This document shows positions 826 through 52,122 of a stretch of 64,000 nucleotides of DNA, piece after piece. A model generated the notes under the pieces. The model had not been told where the DNA came from, did not search any database, and saw only the letters and a program-made list of their open reading frames with translations. Positions within the stretch are counted from its first letter, which is position 1, and each line of letters opens with the position of its first letter. Source of the DNA: a virus; the IMG/VR virus record IMGVR_UViG_3300020180_000014, positions 1-64,000 of that record. One strand, written 5' to 3'. The position numbers and the translations under genes are program-made.

Positions 826-1101
826 TTACATCTTCGCGCGGACGCAGCTGCGGAACGCCTTGGCGCTCTTGCCCTTGCAGGCACGTGCGGCGGCGGCGAG
901 CTTGCGCTTGTACGGCGCGAGGTGGCGCGTCGACGGCTTCTTGCGCGGCGCACAGCCTGCACCGGTCTTGCCGGGGAACGAGACGACCTTGCCGCGCTTC
1001 GTCTTGAAGCGGACGATGCCCTTACGACAGGCGGAAGCCTTGCGTGAACGCTTACGACCGCGCTTGCGTGCACCGAGGGTATCGAACGAGTTGCCGAACA
1101 T
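826..1101 (-). CDS. small very basic Cys-containing protein (candidate core/DNA-condensing protein)
   Basis: K/R-rich with 4 Cys; RBS AGGAG; N-terminus MFGNSFDTLG-ARKR. Confidence 0.75.
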   Translation of the reverse strand: MFGNSFDTLGARKRGRKRSRKASACRKGIVRFKTKRGKVVSFPGKTGAGCAPRKKPSTRHLAPYKRKLAAAARACKGKSAKAFRSCVRAKM

Positions 1102-1123
1102 GCTGCTCTCCTAGGTTGTGCGA

Positions 1124-1279
1124 CTAGCGCTTGACGAACGGGTTCGGACGTTGAACCGGACGCTGCACGGGCCGTTGCGCGGGTTGCGCGTTGGGCATCG
1201 TGCGAACGCAGCAGTTCTTGCCTGTACTGGACTGTGGAGCCTGACGAACAGGAGCCTTGGGGACGCGGCGACCGAACAT
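1124..1279 (-). CDS. small basic P/Q-rich protein
   Basis: MFGRRVPK...QRPVQRPVQRP; TAGGAT lies 7 nt before the ATG. Confidence 0.55.
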   Translation of the reverse strand: MFGRRVPKAPVRQAPQSSTGKNCCVRTMPNAQPAQRPVQRPVQRPNPFVKR

Positions 1280-1307
1280 GGAACCCATCCTAGCAGAACA
1301 AACGGGC

Positions 1308-1323
1308 GATCGCGCAAGCGATC
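1308..1323. promoter_or_regulatory. GATCGC-N4-GCGATC palindrome
   Basis: GATCGC GCAA GCGATC between divergent genes. Confidence 0.6.
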
Positions 1324-1399
1324 GGGTACGCCAACGTGGTGATCCCACCAGCGACTGTTTGACCCTTCCCGAGAGGGCTCGTACAGTCGGACCAATCCT

Positions 1400-3691: not shown

Positions 3692-4228
3692 TTAGCGGAC
3701 TTCGCTCGGGGGACCGATGATGTCGAGGTAGCCCTGGAAGTTCACCTCGACGCGAATGAGTTGAACCTCGACGCGTTCGGGTTGAATGGTGGCGTCGAGG
3801 ATGACGACGGCGGGGTAGTCAGCCGTGTCGATCTGGACCTGGAAGCCTTCACTGCGCACGATCGTGTAGGGCTCTTCGAGGTCCCACGCTTGCGTGTTCT
3901 GCTGCAGCAGCTGGCTGACGAGCGTCGCGCTTTTGGTCAGGTTCTCGTTCTTCGAGAAGTCGAGGATGCGAATGCGCACGCGCTTCTGGAGCGTCGTCGG
4001 CTGCGGCTCCAGGATCGTCGGCGACGTGAACGTTTCGGGCGTGCCCTTGCCCGTCAGGCCCACCTTCATGCGGTGAACTTCGAACGGCTTGTCGACGTTG
4101 TGCAGGAACGACGCTTCCGGGAACACGACACCCGACTGGTTCGGACCGACGTCCAGCTCGGCGGCGATGTTGTACGGAATGCGGAACGTGATGTCCTTGC
4201 CCGCGAACTGGAGTGGCAGACGGCCCAT
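3692..4228 (-). CDS. candidate single jelly-roll capsid/penton protein
   Basis: RBS GAGGAG before ATG at 4228; all-beta pattern (FEVHRMKV, VRIRILD, PYTIVRSEGFQVQI, VEVNFQGY); fold is inferred. Confidence 0.55.
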   Translation of the reverse strand: MGRLPLQFAGKDITFRIPYNIAAELDVGPNQSGVVFPEASFLHNVDKPFEVHRMKVGLTGKGTPETFTSPTILEPQPTTLQKRVRIRILDFSKNENLTKSATLVSQLLQQNTQAWDLEEPYTIVRSEGFQVQIDTADYPAVVILDATIQPERVEVQLIRVEVNFQGYLDIIGPPSEVR

Positions 4229-4359
4229 GGGGTGATTCTCCTCGGAGGTCGAAAGTCGATCGCTGCTGCGACTGGTGTACGGCAACCCTCACCTAACCAC
4301 TGGAATCCCGCAAGACGGTTCGGTAGCTTTCACATACGAAGAGCTGTAACCCGCTGAAC

Positions 4360-11123: not shown

Positions 11124-11991
11124 TTCGAGCGTAGAAGAACGACCCAGCGAAGAGCGTTGGCAAGCGCTGGGATTTGCAGTCGCGTGACCAGCACACCCCC
11201 CATCGATGGAATTACCATTGAGACACCGCTCGGCAACCGGAATCGGTTGATATCCGTTGAGCCCACATTCTCGTGGGTCAGCGTCATGCTTCCTGCACCC
11301 TTGTTGAAGATCCAGGCGAGCGGAAACCCGTTGGTCATGAGTATGTTGGCCGGTTCAAGGCCATTGACTGTCGAACCGCCACCGGGTGGTTGAACACTGT
11401 TGAAGCACCCGTAGATCGCGACGTTGTTGAACGTGCCGCCTTGAAGTACGACGCGAACGCCATGATCACATCTGCGAGTTCAAGGACGTTGAACGAACCA
11501 GGGACGGCAAGGCCGCGAACCTCGACAATTTCAGTACCGTTACCGCCCTGTGTGTCTTTGATTACGTGAAGCGCTTGTGCGTTTCCAAATCCCGGTACGC
11601 CGATGACTACTGCATCGGTTGGATTAACCAGGGATGTGATCCCGGGCGTAGGTCCAGCATCACGCTCCCACGGGGATGTTCCACCCCCACCTCCACCAGC
11701 GGCTGCCACGAAGGGACGTGGTGTAAGTTCCGTCGTTTGGACTGCACCCAACACGCGCGGGATGCTGTGCTTCAATTCCAACCAGACGTTGACGGTGACT
11801 GGATCCACGTTGTTGTTGGTGACAGTGCAGGTCGTTGTCGTGACAGCGATGGCGAACCCTCCGACGTCGAGTGCTACGAAATCGGGCACCTGCGGTATTC
11901 CGTTGATGTTAATCTGGTGCGGTAACGGGACGGCACCACCGCCACCAGGAACGTCAACGAAGGTGAGAATTTGAATGAGACGATCGGCCAT
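11120..11991 (-). CDS. fibre-like protein split in two ORFs (11335-11991 and 11120-11338), probable frameshift near 11465
   Basis: the downstream frame is open and codon-typical from about 11478 (GVRVVLQGGTFNNVAIYG...). Confidence 0.55.
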
Positions 11992-12041: not shown

Positions 12042-14360
12042 CTAGACCTTGATCTCGATCTCGCGTAGCTCGCAGGTACCGACGATGTCCTGCCCATCGA
12101 GCTTCACGGTCAGCTGATTCTCGTCGAGTGACTTGAACTCGGTGAACCACACCTGACCGACGATGATCCCGAACTTGATCTGCGACGTCTGGAAGATCAG
12201 GCTGCGGGTCTCGGCGATACGTGCCTGTGTCTGTCCGGTCAGCCACTTCTCGTGGAGATTCTTCGGGCTCTTCTTGATGAAGGCCTCGACCTCGGTGATC
12301 GCATCCGACATGATCGCGTCGCACGGGTTGAGCTTCTTCTTCGCCGTGATCTTCTCGCGGACAGCCTTCACACTGTCGAGCTTGCTGCAGCCCTTGAGCT
12401 TGATGTCCAGCTCCTTGCCCATGATGAAGTCCACGCTAGCGGCCTGGACCGACTTGGGCGAGAAGCCGTTCGACGTGAGACCTTGCTCCTTGAGCCAAGT
12501 GGCGCCGTCCTCGGTGTAGAGGTCGGTGTAGCCCTGCATCTTGACGCCGGGGAACAGCTCGGTCTGGTACGCCTTGTAGACCTTCTGGAAGCCGCGTGCC
12601 TTCAGCAGCGCCCACTCCAGCTCGATGATCTCCTTGGCGCTGACGGCCTTGACCATCTTACGGTTGATGATCGGCAGCGGCTTGACGTCGATGATGATGA
12701 CGTCCTTGCAGCCTTGGGGCGTGAGTGCCATCACGACGTCTGCCTTGCGGAGCGTCTCGTAGGTCGCCTCGGAGACGCGAACCGGCAGTCGCTCGACGTT
12801 CACAAGACCGTGACTGACGATCGCGTAGTTGCGGAAGATGTGCGTCTTGAAGTCCGTTGGGATCTTGAACTTCGTGTGGTCGGGGCGCGCCGACAAATCG
12901 ACCTTGCCCGTCTTGCGAACGAGCACGCTGATGTTCGGGCTGCACTCGTTGTAGACGAGACCACCGATCTCGTAGCCGTTCGGTGCCTCGTCGGGGACGA
13001 ACTTGAGCGCGTCACGCTTTGCGGCGAGCACCGTGTCGATCTGTGTCTGCAGATCCTTGAGCTTCTTCGCGTTCTTCTCGCCAGCCATCTGCAGACGGAT
13101 CGCTTCGATCTGCACCTGCTCGTCGGCCGTGAGGTTCTCGTCGGCGTCGACGCGACCGCGCGAGATGCGCGAGTACTTGAACTCGGGGTGGCTGAGCAGC
13201 ACGCGTGTGCTGTCGTCGGCGGCGAGTACGCGAAGCAGATCGAGCACCGTGAACGCATCGTCGGCGGGGACCTTGTTCGGATCCCAACCGTTCACGTAGC
13301 GGAGCTTGCTGTCGAACGCAGCGGCCTTCGCTGCGTCCATGAACTCGGAGTACTTCTGCTTGCCGAAGCAGATGCTGAAGCTGTTGATGAACGTGACGTC
13401 ACCGAGAGCTTTCAGTACCGGGTAGACGACTTCGGGCTTCATACGAACGGCGAACAACGACATCGCCGCGTAAGAAGCAGCCATCGCATCAGGTGCTGAG
13501 CTGGAAGTCGTGTTGTTGAGCTTGTTGCCTGCGTCACCGACGACAGTCGGCGACAAGTACCAGATCGTCGTCGTGTGTTCGGGGATGGTACCCTTGCCGG
13601 TCGACACATCGTACGTCGTGATCTCACCGTCGTCGAACGCGAACGCGAAGCCGCCGATCGGATCACCACCGACATCGACCTCGATGCGCTTGCCACCCAT
13701 GGGGCGCTTCTGCATCGCCGCCTCGAACACGGGCTCGAACTTGTCGAACGCGTCGGCGTGGATGTGAACGCCACCGGCCTTCTCGGCCATCGATGCGAGC
13801 AGTGGACGGTCGGCGTAGTAGCCGTACTCGACGAATGTCGCGCTCGCGAGCACACCAGCCGTCTTCTCGACGACCTTGAGCAGCTCGGCGCGGGGCCACT
13901 GGTTGTCGCAACCGTCACTCATGAAGAACAACGCGAACGGGTTCTTGTTCTTCTTGCCGACGCGCGTGACGAGCTGTTCGACTTCGGCGAGCGGCTCCTT
14001 GAAGCCAGTGAGCCCGACAGGGCGTAGCCAGCGATCGATCGCCTTGTTGACGTCGTTGAGGTCCGTGAGTGTTGCGACCGGCTCGGCCTCGATCAGCGCG
14101 CCGAACTCGCCGCGACCGGAGAACCAGATCATCGAGAACGTGTCACCGTCCTTGAGGAGCTTGGGCAGCTTCTTCTTGAGCTGCTCGCGGATCTTCGGCA
14201 GCTCGTACGACATGCTGCCCGAGCAGTCGATGACCGCTACGTGGTTGGTGGGCGTCTCGACGGCCTTGGGCTTGGTGTCACCCTTCGCGATGGTCTGCTT
14301 GACCAGGTGCAGGCCCTTCTCGATCTCGTACGACGTTGCTTCGATCTTGCTCTTGCTCAT
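12042..14360 (-). CDS. vWA domain protein (772 aa)
   Basis: MIDAS DCSGSM, T (GLTGF) and FMSDG; RBS AAGGAG. Confidence 0.85.
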   Translation of the reverse strand: MSKSKIEATSYEIEKGLHLVKQTIAKGDTKPKAVETPTNHVAVIDCSGSMSYELPKIREQLKKKLPKLLKDGDTFSMIWFSGRGEFGALIEAEPVATLTDLNDVNKAIDRWLRPVGLTGFKEPLAEVEQLVTRVGKKNKNPFALFFMSDGCDNQWPRAELLKVVEKTAGVLASATFVEYGYYADRPLLASMAEKAGGVHIHADAFDKFEPVFEAAMQKRPMGGKRIEVDVGGDPIGGFAFAFDDGEITTYDVSTGKGTIPEHTTTIWYLSPTVVGDAGNKLNNTTSSSAPDAMAASYAAMSLFAVRMKPEVVYPVLKALGDVTFINSFSICFGKQKYSEFMDAAKAAAFDSKLRYVNGWDPNKVPADDAFTVLDLLRVLAADDSTRVLLSHPEFKYSRISRGRVDADENLTADEQVQIEAIRLQMAGEKNAKKLKDLQTQIDTVLAAKRDALKFVPDEAPNGYEIGGLVYNECSPNISVLVRKTGKVDLSARPDHTKFKIPTDFKTHIFRNYAIVSHGLVNVERLPVRVSEATYETLRKADVVMALTPQGCKDVIIIDVKPLPIINRKMVKAVSAKEIIELEWALLKARGFQKVYKAYQTELFPGVKMQGYTDLYTEDGATWLKEQGLTSNGFSPKSVQAASVDFIMGKELDIKLKGCSKLDSVKAVREKITAKKKLNPCDAIMSDAITEVEAFIKKSPKNLHEKWLTGQTQARIAETRSLIFQTSQIKFGIIVGQVWFTEFKSLDENQLTVKLDGQDIVGTCELREIEIKV

Positions 14361-15769: not shown

Positions 15770-16519
15770 CTAGACGACCGTACGCTTGATCAGGCCGTAC
15801 TTGTACAGCTTGACGTCGGCGAAGTTGAGCGCGGTCGCGCCGTCGCTCGCCGCCTGCGCGATGCGGATCGGCGACTCGGGCTGGAACACGCCCTTGTAGC
15901 CGAGGTTCTCGCGCTCGTGCACGGGGAGCACGAGAGCGACGCGGTCACGCGGGCTCGGGACGCCGTTCTGCGCCAGCTCGAACGCGGTGTTCGTCGAGAA
16001 CACGTTGTAGCCGTGTCCCTGCGGGAAGTCCTGGAGGACGCCCTGCGTGTAGAACTTCGCGTTGTACTCGTACTGGAAGAACGTCACGCGATCCATCTGG
16101 AACAGCGTGGTGAGCGTCGGCGGGTCCGACAGCGCGAACGGGGCAACGCCCGTACCCGCACCGGGGATCTGCGCGTTGAAGTCATCCTTCAACGTCGGCG
16201 CGAGCGGGGCGGTGTCCGGGGCGCGCTGCACGCGCACGACCTGGATACCCCAGCCGTACACGAGCATCTCCCAGTCCTTCGGCAGACCGGAGTCGCCGTT
16301 GCGGGGGATGTTCGTGTCGACACGCGTCGACGTACGCGTGCCGCCGGGGATCGGCTGCGAGCGGCCCGTCGAGAACGCTTCGAGCGGCGTGGTGAGGCCG
16401 TTCGCGAACTGGACGGTGCCGTACAGCTTGTCGTCGATCCAGTCGGCGAGGGCGATGGTGCTGCCATCGGGCAGCGTGAGGGTGGTGGTGGATGGCGCTA
16501 CGCCAACTGCTCCGGCCAT
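15770..16519 (-). CDS. candidate major capsid protein (single jelly-roll type)
   Basis: very strong codon bias, own terminator, structured 5' UTR; beta-rich pattern LYGTV...F...DTN....GLP...V.G.GI...FP.G.G...NGVP...LPV...V.LY.YGLIKR.V; fold is inferred. Confidence 0.6.
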   Translation of the reverse strand: MAGAVGVAPSTTTLTLPDGSTIALADWIDDKLYGTVQFANGLTTPLEAFSTGRSQPIPGGTRTSTRVDTNIPRNGDSGLPKDWEMLVYGWGIQVVRVQRAPDTAPLAPTLKDDFNAQIPGAGTGVAPFALSDPPTLTTLFQMDRVTFFQYEYNAKFYTQGVLQDFPQGHGYNVFSTNTAFELAQNGVPSPRDRVALVLPVHERENLGYKGVFQPESPIRIAQAASDGATALNFADVKLYKYGLIKRTVV

Positions 16520-16685: not shown

Positions 16686-17525
16686 CTAGTTGCCACCTCC
16701 GAAGAGCGTCGCGCCGAAGTGTGCGCCCATCGCGGAGATGCCGGGACCGCCCAGCGTGCGGACCTGGGCAGCGCCCGGGTCGTTGCTCATGCCGTAGTCA
16801 CCGGCACCGACGAGCGACGGGGGACCCATCAGGTCGGGACGGTCGGCACCGAAGCCCGCGCCGCCGCCGCTGATCGAGCCCGGCACCGGGTACGCCGGAT
16901 CGATGGTCACGCCACCGAAGCCGCCGCCATACCCGTTGTTCATCATCGACGGCAGGTTCGCCGGAACGACGAAGCCCGGCTCGATCGTTGCGATGCCGAA
17001 GCCGTTACCCTGGTACGGCTGGATGACACCGGTCGGGTTGATCGTCACGCCACCGAACCCGGCACGCGCGAACTGCGCGCCCTGGGCAGGCGTCGCCGTA
17101 CCCTGCGGAGAAGCCGCCGCAGCAGCTGCCGTGGCCGACGCCTCGGCCGAAGTCATCGCCATCGGGTTGAACACCGAGTTCTCCAGCTGGCGCAGACCGT
17201 TGGTCACGAGCGCGGTCGCAGCTGCGGCCCAGCCCATGCGGCGCGTGCCCGGGAACGCCATCATGACGCCGCCCGCGATGCCGCCCGCGAGCAGGCCCGC
17301 CAGCTCGGAGTACTGGTGGATCTTCGAGGTGGGCTTGGTCATCGCGCGAGCGATGATCGCGGCGCCGGTACCGACACCGCCGCCGATGACGGCGCCCCAC
17401 ATCGAGTCGCCACCAGCTGGCTGGCCGAACTCGTCGAGGCCGAACATGTCGACCTCGCCCATGTTGTCGTAGTCGCTCTCGCCGAAGTTGGAAGCGAGCG
17501 CGCCGTTGTTCAGATCGTTCTTCAT
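16686..17525 (-). CDS. Gly-rich membrane protein with repeated FG motifs (candidate major membrane/scaffold protein)
   Basis: 2-3 Gly-rich TM segments, about 10 [GNMEHL]FG motifs; RBS AAGGA. Confidence 0.8.
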   Translation of the reverse strand: MKNDLNNGALASNFGESDYDNMGEVDMFGLDEFGQPAGGDSMWGAVIGGGVGTGAAIIARAMTKPTSKIHQYSELAGLLAGGIAGGVMMAFPGTRRMGWAAAATALVTNGLRQLENSVFNPMAMTSAEASATAAAAAASPQGTATPAQGAQFARAGFGGVTINPTGVIQPYQGNGFGIATIEPGFVVPANLPSMMNNGYGGGFGGVTIDPAYPVPGSISGGGAGFGADRPDLMGPPSLVGAGDYGMSNDPGAAQVRTLGGPGISAMGAHFGATLFGGGN

Positions 17526-17574
17526 ATCCTTGTCCTCTCTACTTTCGGGGTGAAGATGCGTTGTCGACGGCGCG

Positions 17575-17808
17575 CTAGCGTCGCGAGCAGCGCGAAGAGC
17601 CTTGCTTGAACTCCCAGCCGGTCCGGCTCTTCTTGCCGGACTTGGTCCGCGTACCGAGGCCGACGTAACAGAGCTGCATCTCGCAGCCGGTACGCGGGTT
17701 CGTGGTCGTCTTGCAGAAGCCGACGACGGGCGTGTCCCCGAGCTGCGCGTTCTTGCGCTTGCGCTTGGACTTCGTCTCGCCGCCGCTGATCGTGAAGACG
17801 CTCGGCAC
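17575..17808 (-). CDS. small basic Cys-containing protein
   Basis: GTG overlaps the upstream TAG; KRKRKNAQLG-DT; 4 Cys. Confidence 0.65.
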   Translation of the reverse strand: MPSVFTISGGETKSKRKRKNAQLGDTPVVGFCKTTTNPRTGCEMQLCYVGLGTRTKSGKKSRTGWEFKQGSSRCSRR

Positions 17809-18656
17809 TATCGTTGCTCCTTGCGAACAGCGATCTGCTGCGGGAAGACGCGCTGCGGCTGCGGGTAGCGCTGCTGCACCATCTGCGAGCGCGAGTCGAG
17901 CGCAGGCATCGCCGTGCGCTGCGCGTCGCGGATCGGCACCGCGTTGACGGCGTTGGTCGCCGCAATCGCATTCGGCGCGAAGCGCTGTGCGATCTCCGCT
18001 TGGAAGTTGCGTTGACCCCACACGTTGTCGTCGCGCGTGAGGATCCGACGGTACTCGCCGTACGCCATGTACGGGAACTGCGGCACGTTGCCAGGCTGCG
18101 GCAGGTTCGGTAGAACCGTCGGCGCGAGCAGCGGAAAGCCGAAGCCGTTCCGTGCCGACCCGAGACCGTTCTTCTGCTGCTGCTCGGCGCGAACAGGCGT
18201 CGACGATGCGGGCGCTGCACCGGCCGACTGCACCTGCGGTTCGCCGTTGGGCCCGCCGCAGACGATCACGCGGCGCGCACCGATCTGGATTGTTACCGTG
18301 CCCCCGCGCGCCAGCTCCTGCGCTGCCTGGACGATCGTACCGACGATGCCGCCCATCGGGGGTTGGTTCGGACCGACCGTGATCTTCTCGGTGCCTATGC
18401 AGACGACGGCCATCTTGCCGCGCGCAAACTCCTTCGCGAGCTTGCCAGCGGCGTAGGCGACGTCTTCAGGCGACGGGTACGGCGCAACCGCCGGACCGCG
18501 ACCGCGCACACTGTCGATGAACGGATCGATCGTGTGGCGGGCCATGTCGACCGGCGACACCTGACGGGCCCACATCGGCTCGATGACACCCGTGCGCGTG
18601 ATCGCATCGGGACGCCAATGCATCTGCGCGTGCATTTGCCGGGTCAGATGGAGCAT
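17808..18656 (-). CDS. putative virion protein (P/Q-rich)
   Basis: ATG at 18656 lies 6 nt after TACGGT; NGLG-SARNGFG motif. Confidence 0.7.
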   Translation of the reverse strand: MLHLTRQMHAQMHWRPDAITRTGVIEPMWARQVSPVDMARHTIDPFIDSVRGRGPAVAPYPSPEDVAYAAGKLAKEFARGKMAVVCIGTEKITVGPNQPPMGGIVGTIVQAAQELARGGTVTIQIGARRVIVCGGPNGEPQVQSAGAAPASSTPVRAEQQQKNGLGSARNGFGFPLLAPTVLPNLPQPGNVPQFPYMAYGEYRRILTRDDNVWGQRNFQAEIAQRFAPNAIAATNAVNAVPIRDAQRTAMPALDSRSQMVQQRYPQPQRVFPQQIAVRKEQR

Positions 18657-18809
18657 GGAAATACCGTAGGCGATCGCTCGCGCGACTGCAATACGAAACC
18701 AGTGTGATTTCGCTGAGTTAGCCTGATGCTCTCTGCACACGTGTGATCATCTCTGATCACGTTGACGCCTTGATCGCGTGAGCGACTACGCGTACGTTTG
18801 CTTTTCACG

Positions 18810-19028
18810 ATGGCGAAACGTCGACGTCCACGCGCGCTGGGAGATGCGATCCCGCAATCCGTCGAGCGTCCGATCACACCGCGCGAACTTGCGACGTGGC
18901 TCAAGGTCAGCCCGGCGACGGTTCGTCGTCGGATCAGCGAGCTGCCGCACTTCCGGATCGGCAACCGCGTACGGTTCATGCCAAGCGAAGTGATCGCGCA
19001 CTACCGCCGCAAGCCGAGCAGTAGCTGA
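18810..19028 (+). CDS. excisionase/MerR-like HTH (HTH_17) DNA-binding protein
   Basis: ITPRELATWLKVSPATVRR....LPHFRIGNRVRF. Confidence 0.8.
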   Translation: MAKRRRPRALGDAIPQSVERPITPRELATWLKVSPATVRRRISELPHFRIGNRVRFMPSEVIAHYRRKPSSS

Positions 19029-20830
19029 TGTTCGTGGCTAAACGTTCACGTGCGTTCGGTGCGTCAGACCCGACACAGATTTTCGCGACGCGTGCGGAAT
19101 ACAACCCAGTGCCGGTGGCACCTTCGCGCGTCGATGCGTTTCTTCTTCCAGCGGTGACTGCGCAGCTCTATAAAGTTGCGACGCCGACGCTCGGTCCGTT
19201 GATCTGTCAACGACCAGGCTACACGTGGATCGAAGCAGCTGCTGGAGTGCCCGGTCACTGGGAACGTCAAAGGGCAGGCTCAACGGGCGAGGGTCTTCCA
19301 GGTCCCGCTGATCCGGTGACCGGTGCGTGCGGCACCAGCGAAATACGTGTTCACACGTCGGGCTCGGTACCCGGTACTACGGTGACGGCGACGAACACAC
19401 TTCGCACACTGCATTTTCAGTTCGTGCAGGTGCTCAGCGCGTTTCTTCAAGAGCTGAACACGATCAACAAGCAGCTGACGACACTGCTACCTGCATGTTC
19501 TGAAGAGCTGCAGCTCACGAAGACGCCGTGGGTAACAAACCTCAACTCGCGCGGACCAGCAGGCAAGATGGGCTGGGCGTACGACCAGTATCACAGCCCA
19601 CAAGCCGTCGCTGCGTGGGCTGATGCGCGTGAGATGTCCGGCGGGATTAGCAATCCCGCGCTCTGGCAGCGCTCGATGATCCCCGGCACCTTCGGCATCT
19701 TCGGTGTTCCGTTCGCGTTCACAGAACGGAACGAAGCGGTCTATCAGAAGACCTTCACGCCGTCGGTGAATCAGCGCTGGTTGATCGAGTACCAGATCGT
19801 GCTCGCATCCAACAGCGGTGACACGATCGATGACGCCACACGGAAGCTCAAGGTCAGCGACGCGCTCATCAAGCTCAATCAGAAAGGACTGCACTACACG
19901 ACGAACCTGCCAGGGTTCGGCTTGAATCCATCGCCGCCGATGAAAACCGATACGCTCGGCGCGTACCTGGCGAGCGGTGGTTACCTGATCGATCTCGATC
20001 GGACACAGGGCATTCAACCTGCACCGCTCGTCGGAAAATCGATCGGCAAGATCCCCAACGGCCGTCTGGCATGTACGACGTTCTGCAAAGATCCCAGTTC
20101 CGGTCTGCCGTACTGCACCGAAACGATAAATCTCAGCGGCGATGCTGACAACGTCAGCTCCTGGGACATCTACGTCAACATCGGACCCACGTGCACGATC
20201 ACGGCGAAGTACCGCGAGTACGATCCATCGTGGTTCGGTAAAGCGGTCAGTGTCGTTGCAGGCTTCATGGACAAGACGCTCAAGGCGGTTTGTACACCGG
20301 GGACACCGACGAACAGCTATGCGACCAGTGCAACGGGTGCAGCAGCGAGTTCAACGAACCCGTACATGATGGTGTGGGGAAAAACAGGCGGGTACGTACT
20401 GGCGAAGTGCGGTGTCGCGTTCACACCGAAGACGCCGATCACGCCCGTGGAAGCACAGTTGCTGACGCCGCAAGTGTCGCCGCAGCCACTCGCACCGGTC
20501 TCCGCAATCCCGCCGAAGTATCAGGGTTGTCTCTCACGTTTCCACAAGAGCAAGCGCACGTTCTCGGTCTACTGTCCTTTGGACTGGCAACCTACTGGAC
20601 CGGGGTTGGGTGCAGCAGATCTTTTCGGGCAGGTCGTCATACCCGCACCGCCCGCCGGGACGATCAAGGTCGCCAACTTGCCGGTCGCGCCGTCTGAAGC
20701 GCCAAACGTCGGCACCGAAGACGATCCACTCTACGCAAAGTGGTGGTTCTGGACGATCGTCGGCAGTGTTGCGGTTGCAGGCAGTGTCGGTGGCGTTGCA
20801 CTGGTACGGCGACGCCGTCGTACGCGCTAA
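19028..20830 (+). CDS. C-terminally anchored virion membrane protein (family member 1)
   Basis: YQGCLSRFH...FSVYCP...GLG...PLYAKWWFW-TM-RRRRR. Confidence 0.85.
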   Translation: MFVAKRSRAFGASDPTQIFATRAEYNPVPVAPSRVDAFLLPAVTAQLYKVATPTLGPLICQRPGYTWIEAAAGVPGHWERQRAGSTGEGLPGPADPVTGACGTSEIRVHTSGSVPGTTVTATNTLRTLHFQFVQVLSAFLQELNTINKQLTTLLPACSEELQLTKTPWVTNLNSRGPAGKMGWAYDQYHSPQAVAAWADAREMSGGISNPALWQRSMIPGTFGIFGVPFAFTERNEAVYQKTFTPSVNQRWLIEYQIVLASNSGDTIDDATRKLKVSDALIKLNQKGLHYTTNLPGFGLNPSPPMKTDTLGAYLASGGYLIDLDRTQGIQPAPLVGKSIGKIPNGRLACTTFCKDPSSGLPYCTETINLSGDADNVSSWDIYVNIGPTCTITAKYREYDPSWFGKAVSVVAGFMDKTLKAVCTPGTPTNSYATSATGAAASSTNPYMMVWGKTGGYVLAKCGVAFTPKTPITPVEAQLLTPQVSPQPLAPVSAIPPKYQGCLSRFHKSKRTFSVYCPLDWQPTGPGLGAADLFGQVVIPAPPAGTIKVANLPVAPSEAPNVGTEDDPLYAKWWFWTIVGSVAVAGSVGGVALVRRRRRTR

Positions 20831-21156: not shown

Positions 21157-21160
21157 AGCG

Positions 21161-21469: not shown

Positions 21470-21478
21470 GACGACCTC

Positions 21479-22282: not shown

Positions 22283-22300
22283 GCTTGAAAACTAACACAA

Positions 22301-22316
22301 GATCGCGCACGCGATC
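22301..22316. promoter_or_regulatory. GATCGC-N4-GCGATC palindrome
   Basis: flanked by TAGTTT-6 nt-ATG on the - strand and TAGACT on the + strand. Confidence 0.65.
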
Positions 22317-22331
22317 GACCTAGACTAGCGT

Positions 22332-22361: not shown

Positions 22362-22401
22362 GAAGACGTACCGATCGCTCTTGCGATCGCCCGGAGCCAA
22401 C

Positions 22402-26189: not shown

Positions 26190-26191
26190 AC

Positions 26192-32244: not shown

Positions 32245-32535
32245 GTGGCGGTGGACGCTCAAGCGCTCATTGACGCGATCCACACAGACGCTCAAGCCCT
32301 GATCGCGGCAATCGACACGATTCGGAAGTTCGCGCGGACGAACACGGATCGACCGCACGACGTGCTGCAGACCGTCGAGGTGATGCTCGCGAGCTTGCGT
32401 GATGCGCTCAACGGCAAGATGACACTCGACATGCTCACAGCGGAACTCGCTGCGCTCGTGGACGTCCACGGACGTGAAGTCTCGAAGCAACCCACACCGA
32501 TCGACGACAAGTTCGATCCGGAGCGCGATCAATGA
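32245..32535 (+). CDS. hypothetical protein in lysis cassette
   Basis: helical ORF coupled to the endolysin (ATGA overlap). Confidence 0.65.
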   Translation: MAVDAQALIDAIHTDAQALIAAIDTIRKFARTNTDRPHDVLQTVEVMLASLRDALNGKMTLDMLTAELAALVDVHGREVSKQPTPIDDKFDPERDQ

Positions 32536-38314: not shown

Positions 38315-38589
38315 ATCCGGTCATCGAGAAGCTCATGCCAGATGCACGCGATACGTACTGCACGGGCGCATTGTTCAAGTACGTCCAGCACAAGTACAAC
38401 TGCGACTGGCTGCAGCCGATGTGGCACAAGGGTCCGTGCGACTGCGGACTCAAGGAGTTGATCCAGCAACTGCCTGAAGGTTTGCTGCGAATCCTCGTCG
38501 AAGCGAGCGAACACGTGCGCGCGACCGTCGAGGGTATCAAGCAGGACAAGGAACGCGACGAGCGAGAAGCCACGGAGAAAGCACCATGA
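38311..38589 (+). CDS. hypothetical protein (H-x-x-x-C...CDCG)
   Basis: coupled ORF. Confidence 0.6.
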   Translation: MNPVIEKLMPDARDTYCTGALFKYVQHKYNCDWLQPMWHKGPCDCGLKELIQQLPEGLLRILVEASEHVRATVEGIKQDKERDEREATEKAP

Positions 38590-38990
38590 TGGAGACCGGA
38601 GTCGTCGTCAGCATTCACCACGAGCCCATCTTCTGGCACGAACCCGGTGGACGTTCGAGCGGCGCGTTGCCGGATAGTCGCATGCTGTGGGACGTGTTGT
38701 GGCAGGCGAACCGCGACGGTTGGCTTTCGGGTTTCGCGCACACGCATCCAGGTGGCGGTCTGCCGGGTCCATCGCGCGAGGACATCTCGTCGTTCGTCGC
38801 GATCGAGAACGCGATCGGTCGGCCGCTCAACTGGTGGATCGTCAGCTCGGACATGACCGTGCTCGTGCGCAAGTCGACGATGGACAGCATACCGGGTCGC
38901 GAGATTTTCGGTACGACACGCATCGACGATCCTGTGTGGACGCCGGATCTGCGTCGTCGCTCGGGCATGGGCCGGACGCCGTATCGCTGA
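38586..38990 (+). CDS. JAB/MPN+ (JAMM) metalloprotease
   Basis: N-terminal E plus HTHP-x5-PSREDI (HxHx7Sx2D). Confidence 0.85.
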   Translation: MMETGVVVSIHHEPIFWHEPGGRSSGALPDSRMLWDVLWQANRDGWLSGFAHTHPGGGLPGPSREDISSFVAIENAIGRPLNWWIVSSDMTVLVRKSTMDSIPGREIFGTTRIDDPVWTPDLRRRSGMGRTPYR

Positions 38991-39010: not shown

Positions 39011-39039
39011 TTGACTTGCCGAGCCTTCGTCGTTAGGGT
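39011..39039 (+). promoter_or_regulatory. sigma70-like promoter
   Basis: TTGACT-17-TAGGGT. Confidence 0.65.
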
Positions 39040-39064
39040 CAGGGTTCATCGAGAGGACTGTGCC

Positions 39065-39508
39065 ATGGCTGATAACGAGCTGATGCGTGTGATCAAGGAC
39101 GACGAGGCCCGCGTGAACGTCACGTGGAAGAACGCGAACGGCGACCTGCCGGATCCGGTGTTCCGTGACTCGTCCGAGGGTGACGTCCGTGGTTGGGTGA
39201 CCGAGGCCGTCCGTAACGGTGGCGTGCCCGGTATCACTGCAGACCGCGATGCGAACTTCGCCGACTACATCGTGGATCGCTTCCCGCCGACGGAAGCGCG
39301 CCCGTACAACCTGATCCAGGTGCGCCCGAAGACGGCGTTCGGCGCTGACATCGAGGATGACGGTCCGAGCGACGCCGAGATCGAAGACCAAGAGATCGAA
39401 CGGCAGATCGAGGCTCAAGAAGAGGCTGCGATCGAGCAGCGTGCCGAGGATCAAGAGATCGAACGGCAGATCGAGGCTCAAGAAGAGGCCGCGATCGAAC
39501 AGGTCTAG
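39065..39508 (+). CDS. ubiquitin-like (beta-grasp) protein ending KTAFG plus acidic C-terminal extension
   Basis: ARVNVTW...GDLPDPV...helix...LIQVRPKTAFG; between JAB and E1 genes; RBS GAGG. Confidence 0.65.
   Translation: MADNELMRVIKDDEARVNVTWKNANGDLPDPVFRDSSEGDVRGWVTEAVRNGGVPGITADRDANFADYIVDRFPPTEARPYNLIQVRPKTAFGADIEDDGPSDAEIEDQEIERQIEAQEEAAIEQRAEDQEIERQIEAQEEAAIEQV
39383..39502 (+). repeat. 63-nt tandem duplication (EDQEIERQIEAQEEAAIEQ x2)
   Basis: copies start at 39383 and 39446. Confidence 0.9.
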
Positions 39509-41587: not shown

Positions 41588-42184
41588 ATGAAGACCGTAA
41601 CCATCGTTGGTGTCGGCGCGCTCGGCTCGCACGTCACGCAGTTTCTCCGCAACGAGGCGAACCTGCGCGTGATCGACTTCGATCGCGTCGAGGCTAAGAA
41701 CATCCTGTCGCAGTTTCATGGCAAACCGGGCGGCGGCAAGCTCAAGGTCGAGGCACTCAAGGGTGCGATGCAGTTCCTGTGGGGAACGAAGCTCGACGTG
41801 CGCAGTGCGAAGCTGGAGTCGAACAACGTGATCACGATGCTGGCGGGCAGCGACCTGATCATCGATTGTCTCGACAACGGTGCTGGCCGTCGTGTGCTTC
41901 AGGCGTACGCACGCGGTGACGTTGCACATGCACCGGGGCATCGCGAGCAGACGCCGTTGCTCCACGGCGCACTTGCTGCTGACGGTGCGTTCGGCCGTGT
42001 GATCTGGGATGAGAACTTCGTAATCGACGAGAACGACGGCGGTGCCGCGACATGCGAGGACGGCGAGCACCTGCCGTTCATCGTGATGGTGTCGAGCTTG
42101 ATCGCACAGTCCGCGAAGGTCTACCTGAAGACGGGCAAGAAGCTCGGCTGGTCGATCGCACCTACGAACATCGTCGGGGTGTAG
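41588..42184 (+). CDS. ThiF/E1-like adenylyltransferase
   Basis: GVGALGS, IDFDRVE.KN..SQ, K.KVEAL, DLIIDCLDN, C-terminal ATCE. Confidence 0.9.
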   Translation: MKTVTIVGVGALGSHVTQFLRNEANLRVIDFDRVEAKNILSQFHGKPGGGKLKVEALKGAMQFLWGTKLDVRSAKLESNNVITMLAGSDLIIDCLDNGAGRRVLQAYARGDVAHAPGHREQTPLLHGALAADGAFGRVIWDENFVIDENDGGAATCEDGEHLPFIVMVSSLIAQSAKVYLKTGKKLGWSIAPTNIVGV

Positions 42185-47281: not shown

Positions 47282-47314
47282 GATCGCTCGCGCGATCGAT
47301 GATAGATTCTCAGG
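47282..47314 (+). promoter_or_regulatory. palindrome plus -10 box, leaderless promoter
   Basis: GATCGC TCGC GCGATC-gatga-TAGATT-6 nt-ATG. Confidence 0.65.
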
Positions 47315-48961
47315 ATGCTGATCGCGAACTTCGGCGCCATCAACCCGGCGATGATGGCGACCGTCAACACGGCGATGTTCAGGCCAGGTGGTGCGCAGCC
47401 GCTGGTCTCGACCGGTGCAGCACCGGGCTACAGCATCAAGCAGCACACGCTCTACCAAGTCTGGCGCGAGCAGCTGCCGCCCGACTTCGGTTGGTTCAGC
47501 GAGATGGGTGTCACTCCGGTCACGATGACTGGCGGCACGACCGATCAAGCTGTCATCTCTGCACGCGCCGACGCGTGGCGCGACAAAGTCCGCGCTGCCG
47601 CCGCGTCGCTGCCTGAGTGTCCTCCAGGCTCCGTCACCGATGGCGGTTCGAGCTGCTACTACGGCCGCGCGGGCATGGGCGCATATCAAGAGATGGCTGA
47701 CGGCGCGATTCAGCTGATGGCGCCGGGCACGTTCCACGTCTACGGCGTGACGTTCACGGTCAACGATCTGCAGAACGGTCGGTTCACGAAGGCGTTCAAG
47801 CCGGACGCGACGCAGCGCAAGCGCATCGAGTGGGCTGTCATCAAGCGTTCGATCGGACGGTTCTTCGGCGATCGCGCAGGTCGCTACAGCGGCGCACCGC
47901 CGGTCATCGGCGACGGCATGATCAAAGATGCGATCATGAAAGAGGTCCAGGCGGGCCGAAAGAAGTCCGGTTGGGATCCGTCTGTCGACGAGATCCTCGC
48001 GATCGTCCCGGACATGGCGCTCTACTGGGTCAACTTCGATCGCAATCCGATCCAGCCGACGCCGACCGAGCGCACGCAGCCTGGCGGCTGGGTCTCGTGG
48101 ATCCGCAAGGGCGGCTATCCGCTCTCGCGCGCGATTCTCCAGAGCAAGGTCTCGGTCAGCGACGGCGCACTCGGCATCGAGTTCTGCTCGTCGATCCTCT
48201 GTCGTTGTCCGACGTCGATGGGCAAGGAGCCCGGCACCGGCCGCGCGATGAAGATCGGCGGTTTCCCGTCGTGTGTGCCGATGGGCTTCACGAAGAACGG
48301 CGTCGGGCAAGAAGAAGGATCCGGATCGTTCTTCCCGTTCGTATCTGTCCATCAGGGCATCAATGATCCCGTCTTCGAGGTGACCCTCATCCACGACGAC
48401 CCGTCGTGGATCGAGAAGATCGGGATGGCGGGCCGCGACTGGATGATGAAGATCGTCGACACGGCGTGCTCGAACGAGAGCATCAACACGAACGCACAAG
48501 CGAAGATCATGTGCGCCGCATGGGGCGTCGGAAAGGTTCTGCAGGCGAAAGAGAACCTGCCGAGCGCGAACCTGATGCCAGCGCCCGAAGCGCCGATCGT
48601 CCCACCGACGATGGATCAGTCACTTCCTGCGTCGCCGAACACACAAACGCGCCGCTACGCGGGTTGTGTCGCGCGCTTCAATACGTCGCGCAAGAGGTTC
48701 GTGATCTACTGCCCGACGGTATTCGCTGGCTGGGGAGGCAATTTCGGCTCGGCCGATGCCGTCACGCCGCCACCGCCGATCGGCTTCATGCGTACGACGG
48801 AACTCGACGTTCTGCCGAATGAAGGCGAACAGGTCGTCGGCCAGGAGCGCGACAACTTTTTCCGGCTCGACAACCCATGGATGTGGGCCGCGATCGCCGG
48901 AGCAACAGCTGTTGCGGGGGGCGGCGGGTACGCGTTGTACCGTCGCAAGCGCGCTGCGTAG
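47315..48961 (+). CDS. C-terminally anchored virion membrane protein (family member 5)
   Basis: YAGCVARFN...FVIYCP...NFG-SAD...NPWMWAAIAG-TM-RRKR. Confidence 0.85.
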   Translation: MLIANFGAINPAMMATVNTAMFRPGGAQPLVSTGAAPGYSIKQHTLYQVWREQLPPDFGWFSEMGVTPVTMTGGTTDQAVISARADAWRDKVRAAAASLPECPPGSVTDGGSSCYYGRAGMGAYQEMADGAIQLMAPGTFHVYGVTFTVNDLQNGRFTKAFKPDATQRKRIEWAVIKRSIGRFFGDRAGRYSGAPPVIGDGMIKDAIMKEVQAGRKKSGWDPSVDEILAIVPDMALYWVNFDRNPIQPTPTERTQPGGWVSWIRKGGYPLSRAILQSKVSVSDGALGIEFCSSILCRCPTSMGKEPGTGRAMKIGGFPSCVPMGFTKNGVGQEEGSGSFFPFVSVHQGINDPVFEVTLIHDDPSWIEKIGMAGRDWMMKIVDTACSNESINTNAQAKIMCAAWGVGKVLQAKENLPSANLMPAPEAPIVPPTMDQSLPASPNTQTRRYAGCVARFNTSRKRFVIYCPTVFAGWGGNFGSADAVTPPPPIGFMRTTELDVLPNEGEQVVGQERDNFFRLDNPWMWAAIAGATAVAGGGGYALYRRKRAA

Positions 48962-49285: not shown

Positions 49286-49708
49286 CTACGTCTCGGGCTT
49301 AGGAATCGGCACCTCGACGGGTGTCTTCTCGTCGTCGGTTTCCGGCGTCCGAATCACGTCGCGCGTCGTCGTCCGGCCGACTGGTAGTTCATCGAGTGGA
49401 ATCCGAACGAGCGGTGCTGACCAGTCTTCGTTCGTGTTGAGCGGCACACGTACGGGCGTCACGTCGTCGTCGTTGATGAACGGCGGAATGATCAGGTGCA
49501 GTTTGCGCTCCGGGTGTTCCGCAACATCGACGAGGATCAACAGGTCACGTCCAGCCTTCGGACGTAGACCCGGCAGCTCGCCGATCTGGCGCAACTGGAC
49601 AATCTCGGCCCAAATGTCGATGAGCGTCTCGCGATTGATCGTCGTGCTCGCGTATGCCAGAAACCGCCCTGTCGGACGAAAGTACGCGAGATGCACCAGG
49701 TACGACAT
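49286..49708 (-). CDS. hypothetical protein
   Basis: YFRPTGRF...GELPGL pattern. Confidence 0.7.
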   Translation of the reverse strand: MSYLVHLAYFRPTGRFLAYASTTINRETLIDIWAEIVQLRQIGELPGLRPKAGRDLLILVDVAEHPERKLHLIIPPFINDDDVTPVRVPLNTNEDWSAPLVRIPLDELPVGRTTTRDVIRTPETDDEKTPVEVPIPKPET

Positions 49709-49740
49709 TCGCTCAACCGTAGCGAGCGGATGCCCGCCGG

Positions 49741-50277
49741 TCAGCTCTTCTTCTTGCGCTTCTTCTTCGACTTCGCGGCCGGACCATCTGGCATTGTCGT
49801 CGCTGCTGACGCAGCCTCGGCACCTTCAGGGATCGGTGTCGCCTCGACTTCATCGAACGAGATTTCGACCTCATCATCGTCATCGATTGCCTTCGCGTAG
49901 CCGACCACGACGGCTGGCCCCAAAGCCGCGCTGAGGATCGGCTCGGACACGGGCTCGGACTGCGTGGCCGGTGGGATCGTGACCGTCGCGAACGACGTGG
50001 GCACAGGTGCTGGCGGTGGCGACGGCAACGGCAACGGCGACGGAACTGGTCGCGGAATCGGCCGTGGCGGTGCCATGGCCTCGACCGCAGCGGTCAGGTC
50101 GTCGACGGTCATCTTGCAGTAGCGCGCGACCTCTTCGAGCACTGCACCGTCGATCGTCGCGCTCACGCCGTCGTGCGACAGCTGCCACATCTTCAAGATC
50201 TTCCCGAGCGTCACGGGCGCGCCCGCAAACCTCAGGTTGCGGCTCTGGACGTACGCGGCTAGCGCGGCTGTCTGCAT
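49741..50277 (-). CDS. HTH-like protein with Pro-rich, acidic and basic tail
   Basis: N-terminus similar to 15422-15637; ends KSKKKRKKKS. Confidence 0.65.
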   Translation of the reverse strand: MQTAALAAYVQSRNLRFAGAPVTLGKILKMWQLSHDGVSATIDGAVLEEVARYCKMTVDDLTAAVEAMAPPRPIPRPVPSPLPLPSPPPAPVPTSFATVTIPPATQSEPVSEPILSAALGPAVVVGYAKAIDDDDEVEISFDEVEATPIPEGAEAASAATTMPDGPAAKSKKKRKKKS

Positions 50278-50335
50278 GCCGCAACCGTAACACGATCCCT
50301 GGATCGCTCGCGCGATCGATGGTTTACTAGGCTCC

Positions 50336-51310
50336 ATGTTCATCGCGACGTCGTCCGGCGCGTTCGGTCGTGCCCAGTTCGGCCAGGTCACGGCTACGTC
50401 TGCTGAAGAGGCGCAAGTTCCACGTCTCACCAACGCAGTGAGTACACTCACGCAAGCCGAGACCCAGCTCCGCACGACGTTCGCGAAGCTGATCCCCGAT
50501 CTGACGACGCTGCAGGTCGCGGGCAAGGATATTCCCGCGCCGCTGCTCGACCTGCTGCAGCGCTACAACGCGGCCGTCGGCAGCCTCATGGAGGCATCGC
50601 AGATCTGGCTACAGGCACGCGCGCAGACGCCTGCCAGTGACCTGCCCGATCCGAACTCGCAGGCGATCGCCGTCCCGACATTCGATCTGCCAGCACCGAG
50701 CGGGTTCGGATGGTTCGGCGGCGTCGCAGCCAGCGCGGTCAAGGTCCGGCACGGCATCGTCGGCAAGGAGATCACGACGTCGCTCTCAGGCTACATGAAC
50801 AGCCCATTCGCCGGTTACTTCACGGGCGGTCAGCTCGGGCTCGGTCCACTCGGCATCGTGGTCGCCATCCTGCTCGGACTCGCGATCGTTGGCGCGACGA
50901 TCATCCTGACCGCGAAGCTCACACAGACCAGTGACACAGCTGCCGCGAATCAAGCGATCACCGAGCAGGCACGCACGCGTGTCGAAGAGGTCAAGAGCGA
51001 TCGCGATCTGTTCGTGTCGACGCGCGACTCGTGCATGGGCAACTCGACGGATCAGACCGTGCGTCTGCAGTGCATCGCTGCTGCCAAGGACGTGCTCAAG
51101 GCCGCGAAGGAGGGTCGACCGCAAATCCAACGGCCGATCTCGCCGATCGTGATCAGTACGGTTGCGGTGCTCAGTGTACTCGCTGTCGCGGGTGGCGTCG
51201 GCTATGTGATTTACCGCAAGCACCGGAACGGTTCGTTGCTGCCACCGGCACATGCCCGTTCACGTGCACGTAGCGGCTACGACGTGGACGTTGACGACAC
51301 GGAGTCCTGA
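50336..51310 (+). CDS. virion membrane protein (2 TM)
   Basis: AFG, QFG, GFG, QLGLG motifs; two TM segments, basic tail. Confidence 0.8.
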   Translation: MFIATSSGAFGRAQFGQVTATSAEEAQVPRLTNAVSTLTQAETQLRTTFAKLIPDLTTLQVAGKDIPAPLLDLLQRYNAAVGSLMEASQIWLQARAQTPASDLPDPNSQAIAVPTFDLPAPSGFGWFGGVAASAVKVRHGIVGKEITTSLSGYMNSPFAGYFTGGQLGLGPLGIVVAILLGLAIVGATIILTAKLTQTSDTAAANQAITEQARTRVEEVKSDRDLFVSTRDSCMGNSTDQTVRLQCIAAAKDVLKAAKEGRPQIQRPISPIVISTVAVLSVLAVAGGVGYVIYRKHRNGSLLPPAHARSRARSGYDVDVDDTES

Positions 51311-52122
51311 TGCTCGTCGTCTCTGGTGCCAACGCGCTGGGCGGTTTCGGCGCAGCGATGCCCGAGCTGACGACGCTCAAGAAGCGCGTCGATCAGTGCG
51401 TCAAGTCGTTCCCGATCGTGAGCGCGACTGACAGCGGCGCGAGTCAGGCGCTCACGTGCGCGATGTTCGTCGGTGGCCAGAACGGTGAAGAAGGTATTCG
51501 CGCCTTCGAGAAGGTCACGCTGCTCGAAGCCGTCGACAACGCGCTGCTGTTCAACATCGCACAGACCCTCATCACGAACTGGCGCAACACCGATCTCGGT
51601 CCGGCGGTCAGCTCGACCGAAGTCAACGTTCGGCGTATCGCAGCGCAGAAGCTCGGTGAAGCGAGTGTCTTCGACGTTGTGTCACCGACACTCGCGGTGC
51701 AGGCATTGTCGTCTGCTGGCCGTGTCGAATCGAACGACAAGGTCAAGCTCGCCATCGTGCAGAGCCTGCACGTGCTGCTCAAGAACCGCGACATTCCACC
51801 GAGCGTCCGCACCGAAGCGATCACGACGCTCAAGATCTTTGCCGATCCGTTCACCCAAAACGACGTCTTCGTGCTCAACGCCGCGAACGGTGCCTTGAAA
51901 GATCTCGCCCCGAAGATCAACATCGGCCCAGTCACGACCACGCCGGTTCCGTCTGCAGTCTCGAAGTACAAGATCCCGCTGATCGCCGCCGGGATCACGG
52001 CTGCTGTGGCGACGACTGGGCTCGTGCTGTTCTTTCGACACCAGCACGCGACCGGGCTCAGCGCTGCAGGGCCTTTGCGGCGCCGAGCAGAAGCAGCACT
52101 GCGACGACGAAGAGCCCGATGA
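51310..52122 (+). CDS. C-terminally anchored helical-repeat membrane protein
   Basis: ALGGFG-AA N-terminus, HEAT-like helices, TM plus R-rich tail. Confidence 0.8.
   Translation: MLVVSGANALGGFGAAMPELTTLKKRVDQCVKSFPIVSATDSGASQALTCAMFVGGQNGEEGIRAFEKVTLLEAVDNALLFNIAQTLITNWRNTDLGPAVSSTEVNVRRIAAQKLGEASVFDVVSPTLAVQALSSAGRVESNDKVKLAIVQSLHVLLKNRDIPPSVRTEAITTLKIFADPFTQNDVFVLNAANGALKDLAPKINIGPVTTTPVPSAVSKYKIPLIAAGITAAVATTGLVLFFRHQHATGLSAAGPLRRRAEAALRRRRAR

Follow-up and report, generated by a model that had tools for sequence, protein, structure and literature searches.

Do the late proteins of an uncultured virus carry a common glycine-based signal, and does a peptidase candidate encoded among them act on it? 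The question is raised by the first 64 kb (hereafter, the window) of a single 91,395-bp virus record, IMGVR_UViG_3300020180_000014 (G000; 62% G+C). An earlier note had pointed there to a pervasive motif, glycine followed by leucine or phenylalanine and glycine (G-[LF]-G), in putative virion proteins, and to a transglutaminase-like enzyme encoded at 21479-22282; all the motif strings it quoted were recovered in all 16 open reading frames (ORFs) it named. We found that G-[LF]-G is a real, selected, lineage-wide signal on late, mostly tail-anchored proteins of a membrane module, that it sits at leader ends and module junctions, and that the enzyme is conserved, membrane-anchored and has an intact catalytic triad. 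The reading we favour, with confidence a little short of even, is that the motif is a lineage-specific processing signal on late membrane proteins and 21479-22282 the enzyme that cuts there.

As working context, we regard the virus as a large, tailless, membrane-containing one. Pfam and PHROG scans of the genome detected no tail, portal, terminase or HK97-type capsid genes, and the late genes have almost no matches in either database. Genes were called by codon bias, and nearly all motif-bearing genes are presumably structural. From the earlier list of virion proteins, two entries are doubtful: the ORF at 18810 looks like a small basic protein of DNA-binding type, and that at 17575 overlaps a better-scoring ORF.

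Enrichment of the motif in late proteins

The late block was defined as 16686-26700 plus the genes at 47315, 50336 and 51310 (4177 aa) and compared with the rest of the genome (20,008 aa). Expected counts were obtained from within-protein shuffles, which keep each protein's own composition. The late block contains 27 G-[LF]-G motifs against 4.6 expected (z=10.7), while the rest of the genome is close to expectation (12 against 13.1). The looser pattern [LFM]-G-[ADSG], by which the earlier note had proposed to gauge enrichment, behaves in the same way (36 against 18.8 in the late block, z=4.1; 46 against 61.3 elsewhere). Two control patterns were flat: G-[IV]-G (late block, 4 observed and 5.3 expected; rest, 12 and 14.9) and G-[AS]-G (4 and 8.4; 22 and 19.5). 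In a scan of all tripeptides that assumed no prior motif, GFG and GLG led the late block after a Pro-Gln low-complexity repeat.

The late proteins are somewhat rich in glycine (8-20%), and paralogues share a module that holds about 5 of the 27 sites, so that the motif might be a by-product of composition, paralogy or a repeat at the DNA level. We consider this highly improbable. The shuffles and the flat controls rule out a compositional artefact, and paralogy alone accounts for those five or so sites only. The corresponding nine-base pattern occurs 27 times in frame and 0-5 times in the other five frames, and the in-frame occurrences comprise 23 different 9-mers. This frame specificity and variety of codon combinations indicate a feature of the proteins rather than of the DNA, and a DNA-level repeat is ruled out. 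In addition, the enrichment was replicated in 16 divergent loci and in one complete genome.

Recurrence of the motif across a viral clade

With the enzyme gene as query, we retrieved 20 viral contigs (30-221 kb) and three contigs from metagenome bins; the capsid candidate of the lineage (15770-16519) added eight more. The contigs come from soil and wastewater samples. As clade A we grouped 16 loci in which the capsid candidate is either at least 58% identical or missing from the stretch, and as clade B a sister clade with a capsid candidate about 38% identical. G-[LF]-G is enriched two- to four-fold in the 16 clade-A loci, with both controls flat. When the 13 most distant of them were pooled, GLG was by far the top tripeptide (149 observed, 49.3 expected, p=2e-30). 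In the complete relative G004 (85,269 bp, terminal repeats), the 40-60-kb capsid and enzyme module has 24 motifs against 5.6 expected; its other 76 proteins together contain 14, where 15.2 are expected. All clade-A loci examined encode a homologue of the enzyme.

Position of the motif within proteins

Many unrelated ORFs start with M-[LF]-x(4-20)-[LF]-G, the spacer being variable. In the window, such leader-type starts are found at 826(-), 19028, 22402, 23193, 25432, 25665, 26192, 47315, 50336 and 51310, and dozens more occur in the relatives. The motif-bearing genes are the following:

826-1101, minus strand: very basic protein of 91 aa; 10-residue 'M-F...' leader ending L-G
16686-17525, minus strand: Gly-rich membrane protein of 279 aa; three [LFM]-G in the first 35 residues and four tandem G-F-G units
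17808-18740, minus strand: protein of 310 aa; adjacent GLG and GFG at residues 192-201
19028-20830, plus strand: tail-anchored protein of 600 aa; 11-residue 'M-F...' leader with F-G at its end; a GLG at 526, ahead of the C-terminal anchor
22402-23094, plus strand: tail-anchored protein of 230 aa; starts 'M-L-F...' and has three G-[LF]-G; a palindrome and a -10-like box lie 5' of the start
23193-24113, plus strand: protein of 306 aa; 13-residue 'M-L...' leader ending G-F-G, and two internal GLG
24113-25432, plus strand: paralogue of 439 aa; Cys-containing C-terminal module with two GLG, plus one GFG
25432-25626, plus strand: membrane protein of 64 aa; starts 'M-L...', with Q-L-G then D-A ahead of the helix
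25665-26189, plus strand: tail-anchored protein of 174 aa; N-terminal arm like that of the capsid candidate, then GLG and two further motifs
26192-26644, plus strand: tail-anchored protein of 150 aa; leader ending with GLG at residues 12-14, and two more motifs
47315-48961, plus strand: paralogue of 19028, 548 aa; 7-residue 'M-L...' leader ending F-G
50336-51310, plus strand: membrane protein of 324 aa; 11-residue 'M-F...' leader ending F-G, and two G-[LF]-G
51310-52122, plus strand: tail-anchored protein of 270 aa; 14-residue 'M-L...' leader ending G-F-G

Cleaved leaders generally show a variable leader, an invariant site, a conserved mature start and leaderless orthologues that begin at the site. 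This combination was found in families 0, 14 and 18 and in the protease family itself. In family 18, three orthologues have an N-terminal extension of 17-37 residues ending in GLG, and three others begin with their Met at that very point. Family 0, present only in the relatives, has a leader variable in both length and sequence, then an invariant L-G and a conserved start; in its split and fused gene versions, G-[LF]-G stays immediately before the same downstream module. An orthologue of 826-1101 in G004 lacks the leader. The placement described in the earlier note, after short N-terminal leaders or at domain junctions, is thus borne out. Fission and fusion were also seen among the small membrane proteins encoded 3' of the enzyme gene (11170-11766 in locus L012 and 11084-11730 in L014, compared with 9676-9999 in L007 and 11598-12152 in L017). 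The break point is G-[LF]-G, and the new downstream ORF gains a leader of its own ending in the motif.

Sites were compared with those of three close relatives. [LFM]-G was kept within six columns in 45 of the 61 site-by-orthologue comparisons, and the exact G-[LFM]-G in 25 of the 61, against about 9% expected from a flank identity of 45%; L and F interchange. The GLG of 17808-18740 is kept in two of three close orthologues despite a flank identity of 5-15%, and the site at residue 526 of 19028-20830 in orthologues with an overall identity of 18-19%. Motif density is highest in 16686-17525, where this protein and its 17 orthologues (18 loci) have three to four N-G-[LFM]-G-[IV]-P-like units in tandem, their register preserved at 30-37% identity.

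The motif often lies a few to a few dozen residues ahead of a C-terminal membrane anchor, and proteins predicted to have a membrane helix include more of its carriers than expected (odds ratio 3-4, p=1e-7 to 1e-13), a bias that fits a membrane-tethered enzyme. A nine-residue N-terminal arm, V-G-V-A-P-x-T-T-T, is common to the capsid candidate (16475-16519(-)), 25665-26189 (25700-25740(+)) and, in relatives, family 10. In the latter two it is followed by G-[LF]-G, and family 10 has a second motif about eight residues before its C-terminal anchor. By hhalign, family 10 matches the capsid-candidate family (family 3) in this arm at E=4.5e-6. The arm is perhaps a docking strand for the capsid lattice.

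Many carriers display the motif, a short spacer, a hydrophobic helix and a basic tail, an arrangement that recalls C-terminal sorting signals. The enzyme could then be a transpeptidase or cross-linker of sortase or transglutaminase kind, cutting at the motif ahead of the anchor and joining the freed end to lipid or protein; its fold family does include true transglutaminases. We consider this distinctly unlikely. The motif contains neither Gln nor Lys, the residues whose groups transglutaminases join, leaders of 7-20 residues at the N-terminus make no sense as transfer cargo, and an acceptor is not evident.

A membrane-anchored enzyme of the transglutaminase fold

The candidate enzyme is laid out as follows:

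21479-22282, minus strand: membrane-anchored transglutaminase-fold cysteine peptidase candidate of 267 aa; GLG at residues 14-16, membrane helix at about 26-55, L-G then R at 63-65, catalytic domain at about 66-267

Profile, order of the catalytic residues (Cys, His, Asp) and core fold all place the protein in the transglutaminase-like superfamily. Residues 140-245 match PF01841 at 24.7 bits, above the cut-off of 23 (E=2.9e-5), and most of its 322 metagenome homologues have a precomputed match to the same profile. C193, H226 and D245 do not vary among 20 homologues, the most distant being 50% identical, which upholds the triad named in the earlier note, and the enzyme is apparently active, judging by these residues. 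The AF2 model has a pLDDT of 79 overall and above 90 over most of residues 90-267. Its best Foldseek matches (probability 1.0, E=4e-4 to 4e-3) are Streptococcus pyogenes TglA, LapG, the putative cysteine protease 3isr, PNGase and TGase. A literature search on TglA, the top structural match, retrieved nothing. Among the weaker fold matches are the CPR-C4 protease and two pseudomurein isopeptidases, PeiW and PeiP (Foldseek E=0.12-0.19 for these two).

Membership in narrower families was not found. The DUF920/BTLCP profile of the LapG family proper gave no match, PF01841 being the only profile that scored in Pfam at E≤0.01, and a profile search of PDB sequences reached the LapG-like 4u65 at E=0.78, so the resemblance to LapG is at the level of the fold. 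No clan CE (adenain-type) member appeared in Pfam or among the 50 best structural matches, and the order of the catalytic residues is Cys, His, Asp. In the late genes scanned, neither PHROG nor Pfam gave a match to T4 gp21 or the HK97 prohead protease. The earlier note had called the system adenovirus- or poxvirus-style; since the fold and the triad order differ from those of the adenain, African swine fever virus (ASFV) and poxvirus proteases, to which the enzyme is unrelated, that likeness is one of analogy only.

The motif flanks the membrane helix of the enzyme on both sides, as the earlier note had described, and both sites (GLG 14-16 and L-G, then R, 63-65) lie in low-confidence stretches of the model (pLDDT <50). 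An N-terminal membrane helix is present in 113 of 120 homologues, and 108 of these 113 (96%) have [LF]-G within the 30 residues that follow it (median distance from the anchor, 10 residues; the next residue is mostly Arg), compared with about 30% by chance. The anchor-less enzymes of clade B begin approximately at this juxtamembrane position. The pattern is what would be expected of a membrane-tethered protease that releases itself, and we take it as a hint in that direction, not as proof.

Could the sites instead be cut by a host protease or by another viral enzyme? A precedent exists in staphylococcal phage 80alpha, in which the host protease for trimming ribosomal protein L27 also removes the leaders of capsid and scaffold. 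Moreover, the link between 21479-22282 and the motif is one of co-occurrence only, and it is broken by clade B. The genome also encodes another candidate protease system, in which a weak JAB gene lies next to a ThiF E1 and a ubiquitin-like candidate that has the same [LF]-G then A pattern as the late proteins:

39011-39508, plus strand: ubiquitin-like candidate; A-F-G then A, ahead of a long tail of acidic repeats; accompanied by 38586-38990 and 41588-42184

We nevertheless regard cutting by another protease as unlikely. The E1 is strong in this genome and absent from two complete relatives with strong motif enrichment, so the motif does not have this module as a constant partner, and we rejected it as the system responsible. 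For the JAB gene itself, the single-protein search had no positive control and the Pfam search missed even the weak JAB of the window, so that neither was informative. Pfam and PHROG scans detected no further peptidase family in the late module, and the motif is unlike those of signal peptidase I or II, prepilin and double-glycine leaders.

The case against cleavage

Several observations weigh against the favoured reading. The gene set was originally picked in the earlier note, although the tests on the whole block and the whole genome agree all the same. The N-terminal positional peak is only about two-fold above an already raised module average, and the composition of the flanks is no more linker-like than at random positions. 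Not all motifs have to be sites, since some lie within hydrophobic helices or within a C-terminal module that is conserved (Q-G-[FYW]-[GA]-K). The co-occurrence of motif and protease, complete in the clade-A loci examined, does not extend beyond that clade. Clade B retains the enzyme (E about 1e-60) without the anchor, and G-[LF]-G is not enriched there; no substitute tripeptide is enriched in clade B beyond low-complexity repeats, and a few N-terminal 'x-L-G' leaders occur beside the enzyme gene. The Salisaeta phage SSIP-1, the only isolate in the phage collection with an enzyme homologue (gp34; tblastn E=6e-6, family HMM E=1.2e-21), likewise shows no G-[LF]-G enrichment, and we therefore rejected it as a model for the motif. 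The other protein families of the lineage have no match in SSIP-1 except a weak sigma-factor one (E=4e-4).

The link between enzyme and motif is therefore correlative, and the enzyme is older than the expansion of the motif. That expansion coincides with the gain of a membrane anchor by the enzyme, which fits a changed job or specificity. The same pattern equally allows another ancestral job, such as that of a wall-cutting entry enzyme; in clade B and SSIP-1, either the specificity differs or the enzyme serves otherwise. The weak fold matches to PeiW and PeiP keep an entry enzyme that cuts the cell wall among the possibilities. That cutting takes place at the motif, and that 21479-22282 performs it, is inferred.

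These observations lead to an alternative that we hold possible though doubtful, namely that the motif is an uncut short linear signal (a tag for particle loading, membrane sorting or partner binding, or a hinge) and that the enzyme does another job, for example virion-associated cutting of cell-wall peptide links at entry or exit. Enzyme without motif in clade B is what such a signal would allow, and in SSIP-1, a phage without motif enrichment, gp34 carries the annotation of a virion structural protein; a homologue in the virion was counted for the favoured reading as well. PeiW and PeiP, transglutaminase-fold isopeptidases of archaeal viruses, suit a wall-cutting role, the tandem N-G-[LFM]-G-[IV]-P units of 16686-17525 could be multivalent binding units, and the motifs in helices or in conserved C-terminal modules are also compatible with a tag. 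However, orthologues that start exactly at the motif and the fission and fusion variants are expected of a cut site, and a binding motif would need special pleading to accommodate them. The enzyme's own conserved juxtamembrane [LF]-G is equally hard to explain by binding, and a separate endolysin-like gene with a peptidoglycan-binding domain is already present (32532-33530(+); PG_binding_1, E=1.4e-14).

Overall, the interpretation of the earlier note is partly supported. Its proposal that 21479-22282 processes or cross-links many precursors after [LF]-G is sustained in so far as the motif is selected and the enzyme conserved and apparently active; cross-linking is unlikely given a motif without Gln or Lys, and cutting is the part that we retain, at the confidence given above.

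A possible scheme of processing and its parallels

If the motif is indeed a processing signal, the mostly tail-anchored precursors would gather on the viral membrane, and the common leader may double as a loading tag, like the capsid targeting sequence of T4 (PMC9026906). The tethered enzyme would cut after the second Gly, removing leaders and separating modules, and would finally, and probably, free its own catalytic domain at the [LF]-G just past the anchor. The complete scheme, in which about a dozen unrelated precursors are gathered by their C-terminal anchors and a common M-L...G-[LF]-G leader and are then trimmed and released by a tethered, self-freeing protease of the transglutaminase fold, is more speculative, and our confidence in it is well below even.

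Adenovirus offers the first parallel. Its protease AVP (adenain) recognizes (M/I/L)-X-G-G↓X and (M/I/L)-X-G-X↓G, where the arrow marks the point of cleavage (PMC4246237). As in adenovirus, the present system has one virus-encoded cysteine protease candidate and one short Gly-based consensus, with a hydrophobic residue and Gly in the site, across many unrelated particle precursors; this trait of adenain-type systems was found for the motif itself, not for its cleavage. A tailless particle and a jelly-roll capsid lineage, both deduced here from the genes, are also shared. Unlike adenain, 21479-22282 has a transglutaminase/papain-like fold with the order Cys-His-Asp, no Peptidase_C5 match and G-[LF]-G as its putative site. 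It is also membrane-anchored, its candidate substrates are mostly tail-anchored membrane proteins, and the host is a bacterium; for this virus, cleavage itself is deduced.

The second parallel is T4, in which a capsid targeting sequence and the prohead protease gp21, with L/I-X-E sites, act together (PMC9026906). In both cases, N-terminal leaders of about 10 residues are present on otherwise unrelated proteins. Those of T4 first direct their protein into the particle and are later cut off at a motif of three residues, and gp21 is also thought to process itself. Unlike the enzyme studied here, gp21 belongs to the serine proteases of the HK97 and herpesvirus assemblin kind and cuts after Glu, within the prohead of a tailed phage; the present candidate is a Cys peptidase on a membrane with a Gly-based motif.

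LapG is the nearest solved fold of known function. This transglutaminase-like proteinase with a Cys-His-Asp triad cuts the adhesin LapA between Ala108 and Ala109, and a Cys-to-Ala change abolishes cutting (PMC3032545). It shares the triad with 21479-22282 and cuts between small residues, releasing a membrane-retained protein. Unlike 21479-22282, however, LapG is a soluble periplasmic enzyme that depends on calcium and is under the control of LapD and c-di-GMP; it has one or two adhesin substrates and an Ala-Ala site. The two have no detectable sequence family in common, the Foldseek E value being about 1e-3. In SSIP-1, the enzyme homologue gp34 is annotated as a structural protein, and the phage is tailless with an internal membrane; it differs in that gp34 lacks the N-terminal anchor, G-[LF]-G is not enriched and the genome is 44 kb, compared with 77-138 kb.

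Maturation by proteolysis is well documented for tailed phages, herpesviruses, adenovirus, ASFV and poxviruses. We know of no case in tailless membrane-containing bacterial viruses, and a literature search on maturation in such viruses, or on a G-[LF]-G motif, found no paper. If the motif is a cleavage code, the enzyme would be the first maturation protease of these viruses, and on a new fold. It would also make virion proteins, with their mature ends, recognizable by a simple sequence rule in a large clade of uncultured viruses of 77-138 kb whose late genes match nothing known, and supply a compact pair of protease and tag (a 200-residue domain and a three-residue site) of possible use as a tool. 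Should the complete scheme of sorting and trimming be true, it would be of a kind not described for prokaryotic jelly-roll, membrane-containing viruses, and an independent invention of adenovirus- or T4-style maturation based on a protease fold without a known role in virus maturation.

Other features of the genome

CheckV estimates the record to be about 68% complete, and it is linear. Complete relatives, with terminal repeats, measure 85-86 kb, and other contigs reach 138-221 kb, so the genome size and ends of this virus are uncertain. No near-identical or isolate relative was found in the phage collection searched. Replication genes can be recognized outside the late block, namely those for a PolA-UDG fusion, a ribonucleotide reductase, ThyX, a prim-pol, SNF2 and XPD helicases and a HerA/FtsK-type ATPase.

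The capsid candidate is given for context only:

15770-16519, minus strand: candidate single jelly-roll capsid protein (family 3) of 249 aa, without G-[LF]-G

It is the most conserved protein of the lineage (19 orthologues, 32-93% identity). Its AF2 model is of moderate quality (pLDDT 61), and the structural matches are weak and consistently to jelly-roll capsid proteins: SPV1 by Foldseek (E=0.037), and nanovirus, SPV1, PBCV-1, HHIV-2 and HCIV-1 at VIA Z 6.0-6.8. The assignment is thus that of a candidate suggested by the model. Together with 3692-4285(-) (family 5), it makes up the two most conserved proteins of the lineage. The two genes are neighbours in most relatives and are separated here by 11 kb, with a von Willebrand factor A (vWA) gene and others in between; by hhalign, the two families are not similar. 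A pair of small capsid genes lying side by side would be reminiscent of the phages and archaeal viruses with two capsid proteins, P23-77, SH1, HHIV-2 and SSIP-1. The vWA protein (12042-14360(-), 772 aa) matches phrog_2426 from end to end (E=5e-174), and conserved hypothetical proteins from about 500 tailed phages (Ackermannviridae and others) share 33-36% identity with it. It is one of few late-region genes that this virus has in common with tailed phages, and among the related loci it was found only in L003.

The 790-aa protein of 27745-30117(-) is kept in 14 loci and lacks G-[LF]-G. Its N- and C-terminal domains are conserved; between them lie a linker rich in Pro/Gln and a long helical stretch rich in Arg/Glu, and an acidic tail follows. 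It looks like a protein of scaffold or tape-measure type. A dual-specificity-phosphatase-like gene lies inside the late block (26674-27132(+); phrog_10650, E=1.5e-9).

Finally, a GATCGC...GCGATC palindrome and a -10-like box are found no more than about 10 nt from the ATG of several late genes, without a Shine-Dalgarno sequence, in the following regions:

22283-22312: palindrome and -10-like box
22372-22401: palindrome and -10-like box
25626-25664: palindrome and -10-like box
47285-47314: palindrome and -10-like box
50306-50335: palindrome and -10-like box

This arrangement suggests leaderless late transcripts under one operator or promoter, and its position directly 5' of the ATG supports the short gene starts chosen in the earlier note.

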